Of a stretch of 64,000 bases of DNA, positions 26,416-38,979 are shown one piece after another (position 1 is the stretch's first letter; the number at the start of each line of letters is the position of its first letter). The notes below the pieces were generated by a model. That model was not told where the DNA came from and did not search any database. It saw only the letters and a program-made list of their open reading frames with translations. A program made the position numbers and the translations under genes. This DNA comes from Tricharina praecox (Eukaryota): assembly GCF_024521635.1 (NCBI RefSeq), contig NW_026250408.1, positions 434,001 through 498,000 on the forward strand. The letters run 5' to 3'.

Positions 26416-27797
26416 TTTTTTTTGACGCATTGGATACGGAGCTGTCTCTTTTACGGGGTTTCTTTGTTTCTCTATCGTTCGGATCTCTTGCTGGTGTTTA
26501 CAGATCTTTCCATCTTTCGATGCTGTGTTGTGTTGCTACTATGGGGGCGATGATTTCATTTTTTCTTTTCATTTTACATTTGTCGTCTTTCCTTTCGAGT
26601 TTGTCAACCTCTCTTTTGAGTTCGCTGTTTGTTCTGCTTTCTGCTTGGTGATGGATGGGGGCGGCCGGTCTAGAGGGGAGGCGAGGAGGATCGGAGACCG
26701 GGAAAAAAGGGTTCTTGCGTTGATGAGAATCGTGACGGAACTGGAACGGCTGGCTGTTATTGTGACGTGCGTTTGCGACTGTTGATGGAAATTCCCTTTG
26801 CTTAGGCTTTTTTACTGATTTCATTCACTCTACCCACCCCGCCCGTTTTCTTGTATGTACTTGATACTTGATCTGTATTGGTACTTACTGGTATTGGTAT
26901 TTACTGGTACTGGTACTTACTGGTACTGGTAGGTACCGCAAGGCAAGCTTTGCATGCAGACCCGGATTAAAGGATTGATGGTTTGAAGGTGCAGAGAAGA
27001 AGGGAGCGAACGGTAATGGTTGAATGGTTGAATGGTTGAATGGGTGGTTTGAGTGATGGTTGAGTGATGGGGGTTGAGTGATGGGGATTCCAAGTGCGGA
27101 GTGGGGTGCGGTGAGGTGACGGTGATGGTGAGTGAGGTGACGGTGAGTGATTGAAGCGAGGCTGTGAGGGAGTGGAGTGATACTGCGGGATGGGTATGGT
27201 AGTGGTGGAGTGGTAGCCTGACACGAGTGATTAGGGTATTGGTGGCATCGAAGTGATGGAGTGGTTGCGCGTGGTGGTGTGGCAGCGTAGTGGCGGGGTG
27301 ATTGTGTGAAGGGCCATGGCAGCTCATTCGGTGGTGGGGGTGGTAGAGTTTATGTGGCGGAGGTGGCGGGGAGGGGAGGGTGAGTGATGACGGGCGGGCT
27401 TGTGAGGCCATGGCGGAGACGGAGGCGGGGAACAAGGTGAGCAGTGCTGAGCTGGCACGCTGGTGCCCGAGCAATAAGGAGCGAGGAGCCTGAAGGTATG
27501 TAGAAGCGGGGCAGGGCATGGGCTGTGCTGTACAGTCACTCCAGAGTCCGCTGGCTGCTTTGTTCACGGTCCACCGGGCTGGCCGCTGTAGTATGCACGG
27601 GCGGGAGTGGCTTGCCATACTGGGCTTCTTTGTTTGTTTCAAGCTTTCTGAGCAAGGTATTTGGAGGAGGGGAGGGGGGGGGGGGGCAGGGGGAGGTAAG
27701 GAGGGTCGGCAGGACATGGCGGATTCGTCGCCGGTTAGTATTGATATTGGTATTGGTATTGGTATTGGTATTCACTATTCACTATTCACGCTAGGAT

Positions 27798-27908
27798 TGA
27801 GGACTGAGGACTGAGGACTGAGGACTGAGGACTGAGGACTGAGGACTGAGGACTGAGGACTGAGGACTGAGGACTGAGGACTGAGGACTGAGGACTGAGG
27901 ACTGAGGA
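27798..27908. repeat. Perfect heptamer tandem repeat (TGAGGAC) x ~16
   Basis: Read directly from the sequence. Confidence 0.98.
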
Positions 27909-28275
27909 GGGCAGTTAGGGCAGTCGACTGTTAATGGATGCTTTTGCTTTGCGTTGGTGCTTGATGAACGGCGGTTGCATGAATGGTGAGAGCGGGCGGT
28001 GGGCATAGGTAATTTGAGTCCGTCTCCCTTATGGATAAGAGCTTTTCAGGAATCAGGAAGAGGATGTTATCGCTACATATGATCATTAATGCTAAATGCT
28101 TTTACTTGTGTGTCTCTGGTCTCCACGGTCTACCTAGAGCGGGTATGCGTGCGTGCCTGCGAGTGCAAGTGCAAGTGCAGATGGAGTGCCTTCGTCGATT
28201 GGCGCCGTATGTATGTACAGTACAAGTACCTATGTACGGACGTCCGATTTCTGGCAGTGGGATCATGGATGGACT

Positions 28276-29223
28276 CAGACCCTCCAACAGTTCGAACTGG
28301 GAACAAACCGGGTTTTCCGTACCCCCCAACTGCTGGGGGGTCGTGAACTGAACCAACTGGCAAACTGAACCAACTACATATCAGGTTTTGGACTGGGAAA
28401 ACTGCTTGGCCCATCAGTTCAGTTCAGTGAGGCTTAAACGTTTGGGCCAAACCCATCGCCACCACCAACCGACCGGATAACCGCCTACAAGGCTACAACC
28501 CGCCACCCAGTCACTACTATTTCCCCAGCAGCCAGTACATAGGACGCCGCCGGTTGACAAGCTCCAGGACTACCTATTGTTCATTGCCCGTCGATTCTCG
28601 AGAGGAATTTTTGAATTTGAAACAGTCCTGCTGCGAATATACCGCGATCGAATGGTGGCTGGAACCGCGCCGGCCAGCAACGACGTCAACTTTCCTAACC
28701 TCAGCCGAATGGCGATTGACATACTGTCTACCTATTCCAGCCATGTCGGCTACCTAAGGTTGAACGGCCGTTCTCCGAGTGCAAGATGATTCTTACTGAT
28801 CACCGATATTCCCTAAGTACATACCGAGAATGTTCAATCTCTGCAGAGTAGGTATCAAGAGGTTCAATCGCCGTACTCCCATCATGGGTAAGTACATAGC
28901 ATCAGAGTAGTAATTCATAGCTAGTACTGTATGTACCCATTCTGTATCGCTTTTTCCGTGAGCATAGGAAACCTACCTACGGTATCTCGCCCACTTTGGC
29001 TGGGCTGGCTGAACTGAACTGGCAGTTCTGCCAGTTTTCCCCGGGAACAACAGCCAGACTTAGATAGATACCTAAACCAACTGGGGAGTTAGAACTGACA
29101 GCCTCTGTTCTATTCCCAGCTGAACCGCGAACAAAATCAACCAGAACTGGACTGTTTAAACCAGTGTTCCAGTGTTCCCATTTCAATTTTCAACCGGCTA
29201 ACTGTTGGAACTGGGAGGGTCTA
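28276..29223 (+). mobile_element. Internally deleted hAT transposon retaining a frameshifted C-terminal dimerisation domain
   Basis: Ends are CAGACCCTCCAACAGTT and AACTGTTGGA(ACTGGG)AGGGTCTA, with many subterminal AACTG/CAGTT repeats. The repaired translation of ~28640-28870 reads AIEWWLEP...FPNLSRMAIDILSIPAMSAKVERPFSECKMILTDHRYSLSTENVQSLQSIK, the hAT dimerisation motif. No 8-bp TSD is visible. Confidence 0.88.
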
Positions 29224-31039
29224 CCTACCTACAAGTGCAAATGTGCAACTGTGCGACTGTGCAAGTGCAGTGGCTACATCGATTGGTTTGATTTGGTGCC
29301 GTACGGTATGTATTGTACAAGTAGAGTATTGCCCGGGCGTCAGATTGCTGACGGTAGAATGGAGTACATACCCAAGTACTTGGACCGTTGGACGTGCAGC
29401 GTGGTACATACGGGTACGGATACGGGCGAGGAGCAGTGAAGTCACGAGTGTGCGATGGTATGTATGTATGGTGATGGTATGTAAGTATGCGGTTCCATAC
29501 CTGTGCTGATGTTTGAAGGTGGAGTATAACAGACACCCAAGGAACACGGATTTGTTCTGATTCCGTATTTAGGCGACCCTGTGCATGAACTTGAATGATA
29601 ACTCGAATAAAAGCGGTAGAGACACCGCATTGATTGTAAACAGCTACGGTACTCAAATCTCCAGTGCTGCCTCCACGCCGGCGAGAGGGGCATCTGCCGA
29701 ACGGTTGCAGAGCATAGCAGTGAGAGACGTCTCCGGGGCGACGCCAGTACTGCCTCCGGAACGAGGCCATTTGCCTCCACAGTAGCGAGAGAGGTCCTTC
29801 GAGACGAAACCATCGCCGCCACGGATACTGCTACACCACCATTGCCGGGATTCTACGCTATCTTCACCGCCCCGTTCGCCTGTTGGGATTCATACCGGTG
29901 TGGTGGAGGGTCCAGCGTTGGGGAGTCCACCGTTGATAGCCAGCACCAGCGGTGGGGGGTCGAGTTGTGCCGTTCGCTGTTATAGCCGTCGGCTTCTGCT
30001 CCCCTCATCCTCTCTTCTTCTTCTTCTTCTTCTTCTTCTTTCATCTCGTCATCATCACCACCATCATCCAGGTAGACGATCAACCCTACCATCTTCTCTT
30101 TTTCTCTGTGTGCGCTTTCTTCCAAAGATCCCGCCTCCGGCCTGGAGTAGTGTTGGCCCACGAACCGCTCGCAAAACCACATCCGCTTCCTCCCGCCAAT
30201 AGAAATCCTCTATCACTTAGTTCCTCCAATACTTCCTCCTCTCGCTGACAGCTCATCATCACTTCCTTCTCTCACCTACAGCTCAGCCACAACCCGCCGC
30301 TGATACTGCACTGTGAATCCCCGCCTCCGCCCCCCTCTCTACTACTCCTAACCATGCCGGCACCATCGCAGATACTGTCTCCCCCTACTACTCCTCTCCC
30401 TCCTGGTCCCTGGTCCCATATGGGGGCGACATCACTTCCTCCTTTCGCTGACAGCTCTTCAATCGCTCCACAAGCCGCCGCAGATACTCTCTCTCTCCAC
30501 CAACTGCACCTTTCCCTGCTTCTATTCCTGCTTCTATTCATGCTTCTATTCTTGCTTCTAGTCCTGCTCTTCAATCTGCAGGCCCCGCAGCTGATACTGT
30601 CTCTCCCCTAGATACTGCTTCTCGCCGACCATCTCACAGCACTGGCTGCACTGTGAAAACTGTCTCCCTAATAGTATGTGCTGATCCTAACCCAGCTGGA
30701 CTACCAATATCTGTTCCTTCCTACTAGTACTCGGCCGCTAGACCCGCCGCGGATAACGTCTCCTCCTACTTCTTTTTCTACCAAGCGAGCAGATAAGTCT
30801 CTGGACCCACCAACGTCGATGCTCCCAACCAACCACATCCGCATACTTCTGCTAACAGGAATCCGCCATCAATTCGTCATCTCGTTGACAGTTCTTTCTC
30901 TCGCAGATATCTCCTCCTCCTCTCGCTGACAGCTCCTTCTCTCACAAACAGCTCATCCGTCACTTCCTTCTCTTGTGGGTTGAGCCTCTTGTAATAAGTA
31001 GAAATTCATTAGAAGATGAATTCATATATAAAGTCACTT

Positions 31040-31480: not shown

Positions 31481-34211
31481 GTGGTATCGAAAATAGATGC
31501 CGAACCTGAACAAATTATAGTTTGTATATGCACCGGATTAATATGAGGTTTAGTCTAAATGCATGAAAAAAACATATTCCGTGTAGACATAGTGTAAATC
31601 CAGTGTCAATTTCTACCAGCTTTTTGGCACAGTACTTACCTACCATCTACCGTAGAAGTCCACAATTCCACAATTCTCAACAATGAAATCAGTCTTCCTG
31701 CTGGGCTTTCCTTTCCTTTATTCACCGCTTACGCTAGAGTACTGCGGGTTGGCAGAGTACGGCACCGGTGTGAACGGTATGAACGGTAAGTACAGTATTT
31801 GCAGGCTGCCGTTGGTTGGCTGGCTGACTGCTGGCTGCCGATGACTGCCGCAGTGCCGCTAGCTGGCTGCCGCTGGCTGGCTGCTCAACCACAGGACTTA
31901 GCAGAAAGGCCTGTGCCTGGCGTAAACATGTCGGTCTGTAGGCGAAAGCCATGCCATCGCCGAGCTAGAAGTCCTGACCGGCGCAATCGCTCGCGGACAG
32001 GAGGACATGAACTATTCACTTGGAGTCTTGGAGACGAGCTTAGACCTCGATCGACTTTCGGTAATCGGTAATCGGCTCAGAAGAGGAACGCATGGGTTTA
32101 TAACGTTTGGTGAGATGGCTAGGTACCTGAGGCTACCGATGTGAAGTTTGAAGTTTGAAGTTTGAACTGGCCTGGCTACAGACAGATAGGTACCGCCGTA
32201 CCGCTGGGCAGGCAGATGTCCGTGCTTTGCTTCTGTACTTGTGGCTGTATAATTGCTGTAGCCGTACGTGTACCGGCACTCTACTTGTAGCTGTGCCTAC
32301 CGATACTCTGCCTACCGAAACTCAACGTCAACGTCACTTCCACTGAACTGCTCCTACCTTGAGGCTTGAGGGGCCTGTGTATGCTTGGTGTTTCCGTAAT
32401 ATTCACCTAGGTGTTGGGTAGCTTCTTGCTTCTGCTGTACCTACTCTGCCCAGTGCCGTACTGTGTCGATTTGAACCCTTCAAGCCCACCAGCGACGTAC
32501 TAGGTAGGTACCTTCCCGCTGCTACGGTATCATACACACGACTTTCGGTTGGTTGATACTTCGTTGACAGCTTGCTCGATTCGAATTTCGAAACCCCATT
32601 GGCAAGTGTCCTATATACCAGATCCATCCTTCGCCGCTGGGGCCGGAGGACGATGTCAAGTGGCAGCTGGGTGGGATTTGCTGTCGTACCTATCGTACGC
32701 TTGGTATGTACTCTGCCTACCGACAAGCAGGCACACTCTCTGGAAGCCGAACAGTGAAATTGACTTGCTGCTGCCGCTGCTGCTGCCGTCGACAAGACGT
32801 TTGCTAGTGCTCGAGCCAGCGACCTACCTATGCGTACGGGAATGAGCAGCCCTTCGAAGTTCTCGCAGCATTCCGAATTCCGAAGCATTTCGCTCGCGGA
32901 CCGGAAGAGTCTGATCCACCACATAGTTCAAAATTCAAACAGTGCGCGCCGCTCGGTCGGAGGTCCAGATGGGGGACAGGACAGGATCGAGTATGTACGT
33001 ATGTACGAGTAACCTGTAGGTATGTACATTTTCCATGGTCCGAACTTCGCACGATACAATTCCACCGAGCTGCTGGTGGGGAGGGAGGGAGTGAAACAAT
33101 CTCAAGCAATGCTGAGGTAGGGCCTCGACTCTCGATTTCTCGGGTCGGATTTATCCCTTTTCTTCCCTTGCATTGGAGCTCCGTTAGAGATCGAGACTTA
33201 AGACTCGAGACTCGAGAGTCGCGTTTTTTCTTTCTTTCTTCCCTTGGGCCTTCGCTTCCGGATATGTGAGTAGGCATACAGTGTCCACACGCATATCTCA
33301 CCCGACTCTCACTTTTTGGTCGATTAAGGGTCGGTTCTGTTCGATTAAGGTCGTCCTGACCAATTAAAGTCGTCATTACCGATTAAGCCATGATTCGCAC
33401 TGGAATGGGATTGGGTTTCGTTCCTTTGGTCCTTCGCATGGAATTTATGGCTGGATGGGTTGTTTCTCTCGTCCTTGCAGGCGGATATTGTAGGCCTTTC
33501 GTTGCCTTGGATTCTGTTCTGTGAGTACGTATGTAGGTGGGGTTTTTGTATGCGATATAATCCCGAATCGCGAATCGCGAATCTCGGGGCTTCAGAAGCT
33601 CAATATAGGTAGAGCTCTATGGCTGGGGATATGATATCACGGCGGTGAGGGGAGGGGTCATCATCCATCCATCGTATGCAGCCACAAAGCCACCATTCGC
33701 CGCATCAGATCTGGTCCCTCGCATGGCGCGTGGGGAATAATAATACATCCAGCGAGCAACCTGGCTAAAGCTTGGTCCAAGGGATCTTGCATTAGGTAGG
33801 CGTATGTAGGCTGGTGCGCCGTGCGGAGCGTTGCTTTTGTTATGTGCGTGCTAGGTTGTTGTTAGGCACGCGTACCGTATTGGCGCGTCGCCGGCCGAAT
33901 CCGTTGAACAACCCACGAAATCGCACAAGTTTCAGTCGCCGCGGCGATATGGACTTTTGAGCTTTTCTTTTCTTAACTCCTCCACCGCTCTTTCACTTCT
34001 TCCCTCCTTCTTTCCTTGCTTCCCATCGTCTTCTCGGTGTATTCTTTCGTTTCCTTTCCTTTACTCCTCCATCACCACCACCACCACCACCACCACCACC
34101 ACCACCACCACCACCACCGTAATTACCACCACTGCTATAGTTACGATCCCCCATTCCCCCACCTCCAGCTGCGTATAGTTCCCTACCCGCTCGCTCGTGC
34201 GGTCCGGCAGC

Positions 34212-37200
34212 ATGGACGACGAGGTAATCGTCATTCCCTCTTCACCCCCCGTGTCCGACGAGGTAATCGCCATTTCCTCTTCTCCGCCGGTGCCCGACCA
34301 GACCAATTCGCCCGAAGAAGCGCCGGACGAGCAATGCAAGTCTTCAGCGGCCGACGACGCTCCTCCGGCGGACACGGCCTCTCCCATCGACAGTGCGTAC
34401 GCAACCAAGGCGCCCGGAACAGCTAGGAACAGTTCCGAAGTCGCCGAAGTCCCCGAAGAGTCAATGGTTGTAGACGGCGCCGAAGACGAAGCCATGGTCA
34501 TTCCCGCGGTGACGTCGAAAAAGCGGAAGAGAGACGACGTCAAGGATGTAGAGGCAGAGGCGGAGGCGGAGACTGAGCCTCGGGCGAAAGGCAGAAGCTT
34601 TAGCCATATCCTGCCGCCTGGCAGTGTAAATCCGATGTCGGTGTATGGGCAGAGGCCGGCGCCGAAGAAGCCGGAGCAACTAATCGTGTCGATGCTTCTT
34701 GTAAGTCTTTGCGCTGCGAGATGGCTTGTGGGTGCTGTGTGCTAACCTTGAATAGGCGCAAGAGAGCAAGAACGGCGTCGACAACGACGATAAAACCTAC
34801 TATGAGTACCGCCTGGAAGATTTTAGCTTCTACACCGGTCGCAGCCATATCAAGCCGAAGGAGGGGGCGAGGGATCCGTATCCTTTCAAATACCCGTGGG
34901 AGATGATCAGACTATCGGCAATGAACATCGTGCCGAACATCGAGTATCTCTATGCCGATGGTTTCCTTGTTGGCGAAGATGGTGTGCGACACTACTTTGA
35001 ACGAATGAAGGTTGACGTGTTGTCCGTTAGCTACCGCGACCCTTTCAAGCCACGTGACATACACGTTCAGTCCTCAATGTGTTCGAATAGCAGAAGTGGT
35101 GACACGAGGCTTCGGGATGTCTGGTACAGGTTAGGAACGCCCTCCAAGGAGTACAAGCCATACTACGAGCCATTTCAATGGTTGGCGCAGTTCGGCCTTC
35201 ATTTCTTCGCATTCGTGGAGTCGCAGATGAGGAAGGGCGACGTCTTACTGCGCGACTTCCGTAATTTCGGCGACTGGATGGAGAGGCAGTTCGATAAGCG
35301 GGGTGACAAGGTCGAGGTGGAGACGTTCTTCTTCGGCTGGTGGAATGCGGTGGGGAGTCGTCGCGACTTCCGGAATGACATCACGACCCACAAAGACTGG
35401 CTTTGGAACCAAGTCTACGCTGTCCACGCCTACCGCCGCTTCGCTGATCTCACGCTTTGGAAGGAGACCAGGACGCTGAATGCCATCGCGCCGGCTTACC
35501 CAGGTCGGCACGAGAACCTCACCGTCGTAACACCGTATGTCTATGAGATTTTCAAGGACATGTACGGACCCCATCTGAAGAAAGTTGTACCAGTCCCGGA
35601 CGTGCCTAAGAAGCTCGCCGGCGTCCTTGTGCATAAGAAGCAGAAGGCGAAGACCAACGAGGTCTACGTCCCACGCGTGGGAGACTGCGTGCAGGTCGCC
35701 GTCGAAGAGAAGGGGACATGGTCCAAGAAGGAGAAAACGAAGAGGAGGAAGGGGGTGAAGGGTGTGGTGGTGGACGACGACGAAAAGGAAGAAGAGGAGT
35801 GGTTTGGGTATGTTACGAAGCTGGAAGGCCGGCAAATTAAAATTGTCTGGCTCTACCGGCCTAAGGACACGATTCTGGATGGGGGCCACTATCCGTACAA
35901 GAACGAGGTATGTTTCCTTTTACACTTTGTTTTCATTGATCCAGACATGAAGCGGTCTCGGCTTGCTGCGCGTCTTCGGCTCGGCGTCAGCTCGAGCCTG
36001 CTCGGTTCGTCGGGTCTTCAACTCGAATGTGTGAGCCGAGTCGGCGCGACTCGGCCAAGACCTTGGGTTGAGCTCGTTCTCGAGTCCACAAAGAATGTAC
36101 CCTAGACCGCTCAGCTCACCGGCGGCTGCGCTCTAACCGACTCTGCTCATGTCCACTCCATCCGTTTGTTTACATCTCGCTGAGACTGAATCTAGCTCTT
36201 CTTCTCGGACCATTGCAATTGCGATGAGGATTCAGATCCGCTGTACGCGAAGAACATCGTCCGCAAGATCTCTGTGGTGTTCAATCCGAAAACCACGGAG
36301 GAAATGGAGTCAGCCGAGTACTTCATTCGGCAGAAGGCGCAGGCGACCGATTGCGCCTTCATTTCGCTTTCGAAGAAGGATCTCGAACTCGGCAACTGCC
36401 AATGCACGGACCCTGACGATGACGACACGATACTTCCCAACCTCTATCACAAGCTCAAGAAGCAGTTTCCTGTAGGATCAACAGTGCTTTACACTCCCGA
36501 AGGCAAGGACGTCAAGTTGCTCGAGCCCGGAGTGGTTTTCGCTCTTGACGACTCGACAATGGGTATCACACTCAGGAAATTGGTCCGCGCGCCGGGGGTG
36601 GTTCCGGGGGCGAAACCCAACCAGCTGTTGTGGACCCAGGAAACTGCCTACTTGCATTGCGGCATCATCGGTAACATCAAGCGTAGATGTTACATCGCTG
36701 TTCTCCGGGACGACGCCAGACCCGAGACACCTTACGATCGCGATGGGATTGGTGAGCTCTTTTACATTTCTGGGGCCCTGGACTCAGAAGGCAATACCAT
36801 CCCTGTGCCCGAGCTTGGTCAGGACGAGTTTCGAGAAGGGTGGAGTCTCACGGATGAGCTCCCTAAAGATAAGCCCGTCCTCAGAGGTATGGACCTGTTC
36901 TGTGGAGGAGGCAATTTCGGACGAGGTCTAGAGGAAGGAGGTGTTGTGCAGATGAAGTGGGCTGTTGATTTCGACAAGAACCCCCTTCACTCGTACAGAG
37001 CCAACCTGAACAATCTGGACGACACGAAACTTTATCTTGGTAGCATCAACAACTACCTTGAGGATGCCATCTGTGGACGATACTCCGAAAAGACAGGTAT
37101 CCCCGGGAAAGACGAGGTGGACTTCATCAGCGCTGGATCCCCCTGCCAAGGGTTCTCACTGGCGAACAACTGCCGGACCAGCTTCGGCGCTCAACGCAAG

Positions 37201-38979
37201 CAGAGTCTGGTGTGTTCCCTAGCCACTGCTATCGATGTGTACCGACCCACGTACGCCATTCTGGAAAACGTGCACGGCATCGCGACTTCACGAATCCGGA
37301 ATGGAAAGCAAGAGAACACGTATACGGAGATGCTCTGTGCGATCGTCGGCATGGGCTACCAGATCCAATCCTTCTTTTGCGACGCCTGGTCCCACGGGAA
37401 CCCCCAGAGCAGGACTCGGCTGATCCTCGCCATCTCCAAGACCGGATACAAGGCCCTTGACCGGCCACCCCGGAGTCACCAGCACAGCCCCAACGCGAAG
37501 TCCCAGGCTTTGTACTCGGCGCCGAACGGGGCACGGTTCGGACGCCGCGAGATCGGCGAGCTGACGCCGTTTCCGTATTTGACTACGGAGGTCGCCTGGG
37601 CACACCTGCCCAATATCGGAAACGGACACGTTGGCCTATCGATTCGCTACCCGGACCACACCTGTGCCGGCGCCAACGACACAACAATAAGATTGCTGAT
37701 GTCCCATGTGCCTCGGTTTATGGCAAACAATTCGTGGCGGGTAGCGATCGACAGTGGTCGTCTCCACCCAGTGCTCCAAACATTCAACCAGGTCGGTGAG
37801 AAGGGGACGGCCGTCAGCAGGACATATAGCAGAGTCTTTAGAAGTGGCCTTTGCCGCACGATCACTACGACGCCGACTCCTCAGTGCTCGAGAACCGGTC
37901 GCTGGATGCATTCGGACGAGAACCGTCTTCTAACGATCCAGGAAGCTAGGATCGCTCAGGGCTATCCGGAAGACGACGTGCTCGCCGGTGCTCCCTCCAA
38001 CAAGCTCCATGTCATAGGAAACTCAGTGGCTCGAGGAGTGTCACTAGCTCTAGGAATCGCTGTTAGAGAAGCCTACCTAGAGAGTTTTATGGATGAGGTG
38101 CATGGTGCGATAAACAATGCGACGGACTGCGACAAAACCGATGGTGTTCTAGAGTTAGAGTTGGCCATCGGAGCCGTCGAACCTGTCGATGTCGACGCCG
38201 CTGCCGCTGCCGAGCAGGCCCTCCAGGCCGATGCACAGAATGATATGGATAAGTGTGTACTTCCATCCATCAGTTCGGACACGGATCCTATGGACCTAGA
38301 CCCTGACGACGCCGTCGCCGAACACACCCAGCCCGCCGAAAATGAGGACCAAGTGCCTGCTGACGACGCCGTCGCCGAAGATATCCAGCCCGCCGAAAAT
38401 GAGGAGCAGCTGCCTGCCGACGACGCCACCGCCGGAGACGTCCAGCACGCCGAAAACGAGGATCAGATTGTTGCCGACGAAGTCAACGGTCATAATGCTG
38501 CTCCTGGCGATGACAGCACCATTCTTTCCGCCGAAAACGAGGAACAGCAGCCGGCCGACGAAGTCAACGGTCATAATTCTGTCTCTCGCGACGACAGCAC
38601 CATGCCTGCCGAGGAAGCTAATGATCATAATTCTGTCTCTGGAGATGGCAGTACCTTATTTGTTGACGAAGCCAACGGTCATACTACCGCCTCTGGCGAC
38701 GACAACACCATGCTTACCAACGACGCCCCCACCAACCACGTCCAGCCCTCTGAAAATTCGGACCAACTACCTACCTACGAAGCCATCCCCCATACTGCCC
38801 CCTCTGCCTCTGGCGACGACAGCATCCTTTCCCTGCGCAACGACGCAGACGAGAGCATGTGGGCCGGCGAGCCGTCGGAGGACACCTTTTTCGGGCGCAA
38901 GGAGTACGGTGGCGGCGATGATGACGAGTTGGATCTTCTCGATGCCGACGGTGAAGATGATGAGGAATTCTCGATCTGA
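34212..38979 (+). CDS. dim-2: DIM-2-type DNA (cytosine-5) methyltransferase with BAH domains (introns 34701-34755 and 35908-36195)
   Basis: BAH region (WFGYV...VWLYRPKDT...YPYKNE|LFFSDHCNC), motif I LRGMDLFCGGGNFGRGLEEGG, catalytic SAGSPCQGFS, ILENV, PQSRTRL, RLLTIQEARIAQGYP, IGNSVAR. Exon phases are consistent. Confidence 0.93.
35942..36155. mobile_element. Degenerate MITE-like insertion in dim-2 intron 2
   Basis: Imperfect inverted ends: CAGACATGAAGCGGTCTCGG versus the reverse complement of the right end, TGGACATGAGCAGAGTCGG. The interior is rich in CTCGG/CCGAG/CTCGA. The intron is 288 bp, whereas most introns here are ~50-80 bp. No clear TSD. Confidence 0.5.
38305..38830 (+). repeat. Coding tandem repeats in the acidic DIM-2 C-terminal tail
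   Basis: Three 57-bp units (DDAVAE..QPAENE.Q.PA) at 38305-38475, followed by several DE.NGH....GDDST-like units. Confidence 0.9.

Follow-up and report, generated by a model that had tools for sequence, protein, structure and literature searches.

Why should consecutive frameshifts in one dead transposase all take the same form, a TA that has become TA plus two nucleotides plus TA? The question is raised by a hAT-family relic that lies within 64,000 nt of the Tricharina praecox assembly (contig NW_026250408.1, positions 434,001 to 498,000). We refer to this whole stretch as the window; coordinates are those of the window and of its forward strand unless noted otherwise. An initial annotation, made from the letters alone, had drawn attention to four such frameshifts and had proposed that they are excision footprints of Tc1/mariner elements. 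We ask here whether the extra bases are insertions, whether the same units occur elsewhere in the window, and what could have produced them.

RESULTS

The frameshifts lie in a dead, multicopy hAT element

The window is eukaryotic and gene-dense. Its GC content is approximately 53% and stays between 0.48 and 0.59 in every 2-kb bin, and AT-rich blocks are absent. Pfam matches were obtained to DASH Spc34, HSP9/12, COQ9, a DEAD-box helicase, and a DNMT1-like cytosine methyltransferase. Matches such as those to DASH Spc34 and HSP9/12 indicate a fungus, probably an ascomycete, whereas a protein atlas returned just generic clusters of DNA methylases. The methyltransferase (34756-38976) is DNMT1/DIM-2-like and combines an RFD-like region with PF00145.

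The frameshifts belong to a dead, nonautonomous hAT-family element at 28276..29223, which is recognizable from its terminal inverted repeats (TIRs), its subterminal inverted repeats (28395-28427 and 29009-29041), a coding part that retains only the C-terminal part of a transposase, and its multiple copies in soil-metagenome runs. The short TIRs expected of the hAT superfamily are present at 28276..28292 on the left and at 29200..29223 on the right. Both were delimited with the help of the loose end behind 29170 in soil-metagenome run X1: the reverse complement of the left TIR forms the right end of other copies, and relative to those copies the right TIR in the window carries a 6-nt internal insertion. 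At the left border, other copies break off at 28276 and continue into unlike letters (seven loose ends or flanks in run X1; agreement, 0.46). The element is multicopy in two soil-metagenome runs, and word depth in such runs reaches ~190 over 28276-29313, compared to ~5 to 10 in most of the flanking unique DNA. No 8-bp target-site duplication was seen, as the 8 nt outside the two ends differ. Instead, a direct repeat of ~160 nt brackets it, the copies of which (28127..28283 and 29218..29375) were paired by local alignment and overlap the first 8 and the last 6 nt of the relic. This repeat looks like the remnant of a tandem duplication of element plus spacer rather than a target-site duplication.

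Just upstream of the relic is a near-perfect heptanucleotide microsatellite, (AGGACTG) x 16.6, at 27793-27908. Two more segments, 31520-31634 and 30231-30943, are multicopy or rearranged, as seen from raised depth, joints, and loose ends in the soil runs, and have no recognizable transposon ends.

The coding remains of the element fall into two parts. The upstream part of the transposase C terminus (28556..28668) has no Pfam match on its own, and its conserved WW is reached only after removal of 4 nt at 28571. The downstream part (28688..28891) is a probable relic of the hAT dimerization domain; it contains the four frameshifts noted initially and can be aligned to a metagenome relative, locus L004 (see below). 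When tested against PF05699, for which the cutoff is 21.4 bits, the window piece 28481-28786 scored 16.9 bits (E value, 0.0057; profile positions 27-48), which is under the cutoff, and four other pieces of the relic gave no Pfam match.

Five of six frameshifts in the relic are of the TA type

Rereading the letters gave exactly the hexamers of the initial annotation, i.e., TACCTA at 28729..28734 and at 28751..28756, TACATA at 28818..28823, and TAGGTA at 28849..28854 (sites 1 to 4). Without editing, 28688-28891 has three stops in the same stretch of frame. Removal of 4 nt at each of the four sites leaves one frame of 68 open codons, extending from 28688 to a double stop and including the peptide that had been quoted, and the sites are then 16, 61, and 25 nt apart. 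A fifth site was overlooked at that time. Removing 4 nt at 28571 brings the upstream segment into frame with the conserved WW, which makes the TACCTA at 28571..28576 a candidate insertion on the basis of frame joining; there is no outgroup over this site, because L004 is internally deleted there. The sixth frameshift (~28657..28690) falls between the WW and FPNL segments, the frames of which differ, and it had rightly been set apart as being of another type, since the stretch contains no TA. The TA type therefore accounts for 5 of 6 frameshifts and is, as had been claimed, the dominant small indel of the relic. In total, the coding part of the relic holds six motifs in 340 nt, representing 6 of its 15 original TA sites. 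A TACATA is also found in the noncoding 5' part of the element (28375..28380), and this unit is missing in some copies.

Replication slippage is one alternative. It would have the units arise as (TACC)n and (TACA)n microsatellites form and expand, with the hexamers as proto-repeats of 1.5 units. In the relic, none of the five inserted tetranucleotides duplicates its neighbors (perfect tandem copies, 0/5), in agreement with what had been noted initially for sites 1 to 4, where at best 3 of the 4 inserted letters match, and the outgroup context is without TACC.

A metagenome relative lacks the inserted bases at all four sites

A pattern scan of public metagenome contigs for hAT copies returned five loci. 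L002 and L003 were rejected as hAT relatives because they proved to be chance matches. L001 and L004 are the same relic in two metagenome samples, and L005 is a third relic. No close copy of the window relic was present among the five scanned loci, L001, L004, and L005 all being distant; identity between L004 and the window relic is 69% over 109 nt.

The initial annotation had proposed that the indels be polarized by comparison with relatives. A frame-blind nucleotide alignment of 28690-28900 with L004 gives L004 a 4-nt gap at each of the four sites, along with one additional, unrelated 1-nt gap. At the positions of the insertions, L004 reads TG at site 2 and TA at the other three. As read by eye, sites 1 and 2 are also 16 nt apart in L004, and the 25-nt distance from site 3 to site 4 is shared by L004 and L005. 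The open frame of L004 matches PF05699 with 26.3 bits (positions 34-58), which is above the cutoff, and this match is unbroken through sites 1 and 2. Because L004 is without the 4 nt at each site and its PF05699 match continues unbroken over sites 1 and 2, all four differences are insertions in the lineage of the window. A word-index search for intact hAT proteins with the L004 frame, directed at longer proteins, yielded none of 560 candidates at an E value of ≤0.01.

Several features of the relatives were observed in passing. L004 2008-2433 (reverse strand), which is identical in the L001 contig, has an N-terminal Cys-pair segment fused directly to the dimerization domain and is an internal-deletion derivative; the Cys-pair segment is possibly BED-finger-like. 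L004 also has 4 occurrences of TACCGTA/TACGGTA, compared to 0.2 expected, in 4 kb. Counts of the hexamers in L004 and L005 say little at 2.3 to 4.0 kb each: TACCTA was seen 1 time and TACATA 2 times, with 0.8 and 0.7 expected in either case.

The same TA-bounded units are in excess throughout the window

TACCTA/TAGGTA (79 seen versus 13.5 expected) and TACATA/TATGTA (78 versus 11.8) are the top two over-represented hexamers of the 64 kb. Dinucleotide-preserving shuffles (n = 100) gave 13.0 ± 3.5 and 11.5 ± 3.2, respectively, and the observed count was reached in 0/100 shuffles for either hexamer. With 6 of 15 TA sites in the relic carrying a motif and an enrichment of 6-fold across the window, a chance origin of the relic motifs is excluded. 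The distance between the two TAs matters: TATA (107 seen versus 96 expected) and TAnTA (107 versus 97) are close to expectation, TAnnTA reaches 284 versus 97.5, and TAnnnTA, pooled, reaches 128 versus 97.5, so that a spacing of 2 nt is the sole spacing enriched as a class. The letters between the TAs form a closed set. The TAnnTA excess consists almost wholly of the CC/GG and CA/TG words, with no other standing out, and among TAnnnTA words just CTC/GAG (TACTCTA/TAGAGTA, 25 seen versus 3.7 expected) and CCG/CGG (TACCGTA/TACGGTA, 17 versus 3.2) do so. The element termini that the initial annotation predicted, CC(G), CA(G), and CTC, agree with the enriched heptamers.

The total load is 199 motifs per 2,498 TA sites in the 64 kb, and roughly one TA in ten has been hit. 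In the 14 one-kb bins that have at least 5 motifs, 13 to 45% of the original TA sites carry one. Motif density is 0.95/kb in Pfam-supported frames (13 in 13,748 nt) and 3.7/kb elsewhere (186 in 50,252 nt). This ~4-fold lower density in Pfam-supported frames is what frameshifting insertions would show. Neighboring motifs are of the same kind in 59 of 198 cases, compared to 65.7 expected; the four kinds are randomly intermixed, with no indication that families hopped locally. We saw no extended shared sequence context around the motifs. Isolated TACCTA motifs have C at -1 in 23/58 and at +1 in 21/58 and G in 11 and 10, and both hexamers are depleted of T at -1 and of A at +1. The TACCTA flanks are not reverse-complement symmetric, and simple footprint models do not predict such a bias.

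Most motifs are isolated (58/79 for TACCTA/TAGGTA and 62/78 for TACATA/TATGTA), and the others (21/79 and 16/78) overlap another motif. By a rough estimate, such a proportion of compound motifs (21 to 27%) is of the order expected if new hits strike TA sites randomly. The overlaps could also be read in favor of slippage, as could the enrichment of C beside TACCTA and the status of (TAGG)n and (ACCT)n as the top tetranucleotide repeats, mainly nongenic, in the part of a Neurospora crassa survey that was available (PMC2257937). However, not one of the 64 TRF rows in the window has an array of a TACC or TACA unit, most motifs are single, and slippage leaves both the 5-nt kinds and the requirement for TA unexplained. 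Taking these points together with the lack of tandem copies in the relic, we consider slippage quite improbable as the source of the motifs.

Substitution or selection, rather than insertion, could also enrich particular words. RIP-like changes of TG or CA to TA, splice words (GTATGT and GTAGGT), or a regulatory motif might be responsible, in which case the relic would be coincidental. GTATGT is a fungal splice-site word and to that extent speaks for this alternative. So does one occurrence of a motif in the 3' part of the DNMT1/DIM-2-like gene: TACCTACCTA at 38768-77 lines up with repeat units of equal length, and since the alignment with these other units, read by eye, is of equal length, this example arose by substitutions. 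Against this alternative, insertions are seen directly in the relic and in the repeats that bracket it. Moreover, TA-creating changes should raise all TAnnTA words and not two of them. The two strand forms are equally common (single-strand counts, 44 TACCTA versus 35 TAGGTA and 34 TACATA versus 44 TATGTA), and we estimate that a few dozen introns would cover only a handful of the 157 hexamers. An origin of the excess in substitution or selection is therefore, in our judgment, highly improbable.

RIP was considered separately as a cause of the relic lesions and was rejected, as the lesions are 4-nt length changes and there are no AT-rich blocks. The tandem repeats that include TACCTACCTA have units of 54, 57, and 81 nt and span 38303-38773.

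Another element of the window deserves description. A palindromic miniature inverted-repeat element (MITE) of 162 nt occupies 2068-2229; its 20-nt TIRs begin with CAGTG, and it is flanked by a clean 8-bp duplication, GGTAGAAG. The CAGTG TIRs and the clean 8-bp target duplication mark this MITE as hAT type. Each of its arms contains a TACATA, and these make up 2 of the 78 TACATA/TATGTA matches. The MITE sits inside a 27-nt inverted repeat (1365-1391 and 2494-2520) that is 93% complementary, with ~1.1 kb between its arms.

Copies of the element differ in their units at the same TA

Other copies of the hAT element (in runs X1, X2, and X4) differ from the window at several of the sites. At site 3, the sequence of an X2 loose end (4 records) is the one expected without the 4 nt, and in an X4 contig the same TA has a unit of 5 nt (TATCATA). 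At site 4, X2 copies read TACCTA, the complementary form of the TAGGTA in the window. The same TA has thus received units recurrently. Among the indels listed, 4 nt are left out at 28378, within the TACATA at 28375, in at least 2 X1 contigs and at least 2 X2 contigs. One X1 contig, again among the indels listed, leaves out 4 nt at 28723 and at 28747; these omissions lie 6 and 4 nt from the starts of insertions 1 and 2 and are likely to correspond to them, although the listing does not show which letters are missing. Six contigs have A>T at 28723 among the variants listed. Because a single X1 contig lacks 4 nt near sites 1 and 2 and six contigs have A>T, these two insertions probably predate the spread of the subfamily. 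The initial annotation had envisaged four independent hits on the window copy. Insertion at TA is borne out, and the state of site 3 varies among copies, but sites 1 and 2 are probably older than the subfamily spread and would then not be hits on this particular copy. Of the possible states of a site, empty and differently scarred ones are seen among paralogous copies, and no filled site was seen.

The bracketing direct repeat provides a further comparison between copies. Its two copies contain 4 and 3 TA-bounded units within ~70 nt, of all four enriched kinds and differing between the copies. Collapsing these units lowers the number of gap events in the alignment from 4 to 2 and the number of mismatches from 16 to 11, a gain matched by 2 of 300 random unit sets. 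In unique DNA of the soil strains, both indels outside the relic (30122 and 31619) are 1-nt changes, among the 12 of 61 variants listed; stretches that lack cover in runs X3 and X4 are uninformative.

DISCUSSION

Accumulated excision footprints as the preferred explanation

The best explanation of the four frameshifts and of the candidate at 28571 is that they are local cases of a process that acts on all weakly constrained DNA of the window. As for the nature of this process, we favor, at odds only slightly better than even (a probability of about 0.55), that the motifs are accumulated excision footprints of the Tc1/mariner/pogo type. Two hallmarks of such footprints are present. The TA target is duplicated, as judged from the single TA in L004 at 3 of 4 sites (TG at one), and the 2 or 3 nucleotides between the TAs are fixed and come as complementary pairs (CC/GG, CA/TG, CTC/GAG, and CCG/CGG). 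We infer from these motifs that transposons were once present at the sites.

The footprint model can be outlined as follows. Three or more families of TA-targeting cut-and-paste transposons, bearing CA, CC(G), and CTC at their termini, would have inserted and imprecisely excised repeatedly. Their transposases would cut the nontransferred strand within the element, 2 or 3 nt from its end, so that the donor site keeps both TA copies plus 2 or 3 terminal nucleotides, and end joining would then fix one of the two complementary forms. The net change would be from TA to TA plus CC/GG or CA/TG plus TA and, less often, to TA plus CTC/GAG or CCG/CGG plus TA. The CCG/CGG pair may reflect the annealing of two 3-nt overhangs that are mismatched at their center. 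Since each scar adds a new TA, scars would become compound and could seed repeats of the (TACC)n type. The load is very high, yet the restored frame is stop free over 68 codons, and so the rate of insertion per TA must far exceed the rate of substitution.

Tc1/mariner excision had been the cause proposed initially, and of that proposal, the TA-targeted insertion process stands, with ~200 motifs in the window. As to a donor, the searches yielded neither an element with these termini nor a filled site, and hAT was the only type of transposase relic seen. A search of the 64-kb window for elements with matching termini returned 7 TA-flanked inverted-repeat pairs, none of them convincing. No Tc1/mariner/pogo domain was found in any of the 133 window frames of ≥122 aa or in the 150 of 235 frames of 62 to 121 aa that were searched in motif-rich regions, a selection that leaves aside 85 others there and 213 frames elsewhere. 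The lack of a donor counts against footprints, as do the very high load, the uniformity of the scars compared to those of rice (see below), the random intermixing of the four kinds, the asymmetry of the TACCTA flanks, and the 1-nt size of both indels listed for unique DNA between the soil strains.

Some of these same points would be accommodated by a process that is independent of transposons. DNA might be cut, or stall, at TA, and repair might duplicate the TA and add a strongly biased short filler beginning with C. Possible agents would be a nuclease specific for TA, a transposase that has been domesticated, or an end-joining polymerase whose preference is fixed. With such a process, no donor element need be found in the window, the extreme saturation (as much as 45% of the TA sites in a 1-kb bin) would have a ready source, the random mixture of four insert kinds would represent different outcomes of a single reaction, and the C bias in the flanks on the CC-bearing strand would suggest an effect of repair or of context. 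We know of no process that cuts TA and adds such filler, however, and untemplated addition is not expected to yield a closed set of four inserts with their exact complements, whereas fixed transposon termini would. We therefore regard a transposon-independent origin as rather unlikely.

A broader proposition can be formulated on this basis, and we put it forward as doubtful. TA-directed insertion, whether acting without a transposon or through a transposase with almost no resident copies, would be the dominant mutation of neutral DNA in this lineage, proceeding faster than substitutions at up to at least one-third of TA sites, frameshifting mobile elements, and providing the unrecognized source of the (TAGG)n/(ACCT)n repeats that typify Neurospora-like genomes.

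Implications

If the motifs are excision scars, then excisions recorded in the genome would number in the tens of thousands, as extrapolated from ~3 motifs/kb, although the elements responsible are now scarce or lost, and earlier transposon activity could be deciphered and dated with no need for the transposons. Small noncoding insertions would derive chiefly from footprints rather than from slippage, and common fungal tetranucleotide repeats would acquire a concrete origin. Excision scars would also inactivate other mobile elements. If the motifs are not scars, they would represent sequence-specific insertional mutagenesis by an unfamiliar mechanism. In either case, models of indels, alignment of fungal intergenic DNA, and discovery of promoter motifs must allow for TA insertions; TACCTA/TAGGTA and TACATA/TATGTA could otherwise be mistaken for regulatory words.

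Comparison with known systems

Single Tc1/mariner footprints are textbook knowledge, and Fot1 and impala leave scars of 4 and 5 nt. We take the TACATA/TATGTA pair to be identical to the Tc1 footprint of Caenorhabditis elegans. The window motifs resemble the footprints of Tc1 and Sleeping Beauty in their TA target, in the retention of the TAs with 2 or 3 nt between them, and in the occurrence of two complementary forms. They differ in scale: the footprints of Tc1 and Sleeping Beauty are single events at places where the element is seen, whereas the window has ~200 motifs of four kinds in 64 kb, and no element was found in it. The accessible part of one report likewise describes end joining after Tc1/mariner excision as keeping both TAs with 2 or 3 nt of the element between them, in both complementary forms (PMC2874221).

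Tc1/mariner/pogo elements of filamentous ascomycetes include Fot1, impala, Pot2, Flipper, and Tan1/Vader, according to the portion of the source that could be seen (PMC13728883). These elements duplicate TA as the presumed donors would, and none of them was found in the window. The literature, supplements aside, yielded no description of genome-wide TA+NN+TA insertions in a fungus, and in the literature we found no genome segment in which Tc1/mariner-like footprints are the top two hexamers and the main frameshifting lesion.

A catalogue of excision sites of DNA transposons in rice treats excision scars as a genome-wide class of indels, as we do here. In the part of it that was available, 8 of 94 sites are perfect and the remainder have deletions or filler (PMC4423477); in contrast with those sites, the scars in the window show uniformity and a far higher density. 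In Neurospora crassa, the (TAGG)n/(ACCT)n repeats share with TACCTA/TAGGTA the same 4-nt unit and a nongenic location. There they form arrays, the origin of which is not stated in the accessible part of the survey (PMC2257937), and in the window the units are single. The parallel is suggestive, and the window motifs may be linked to these common repeats of Neurospora.
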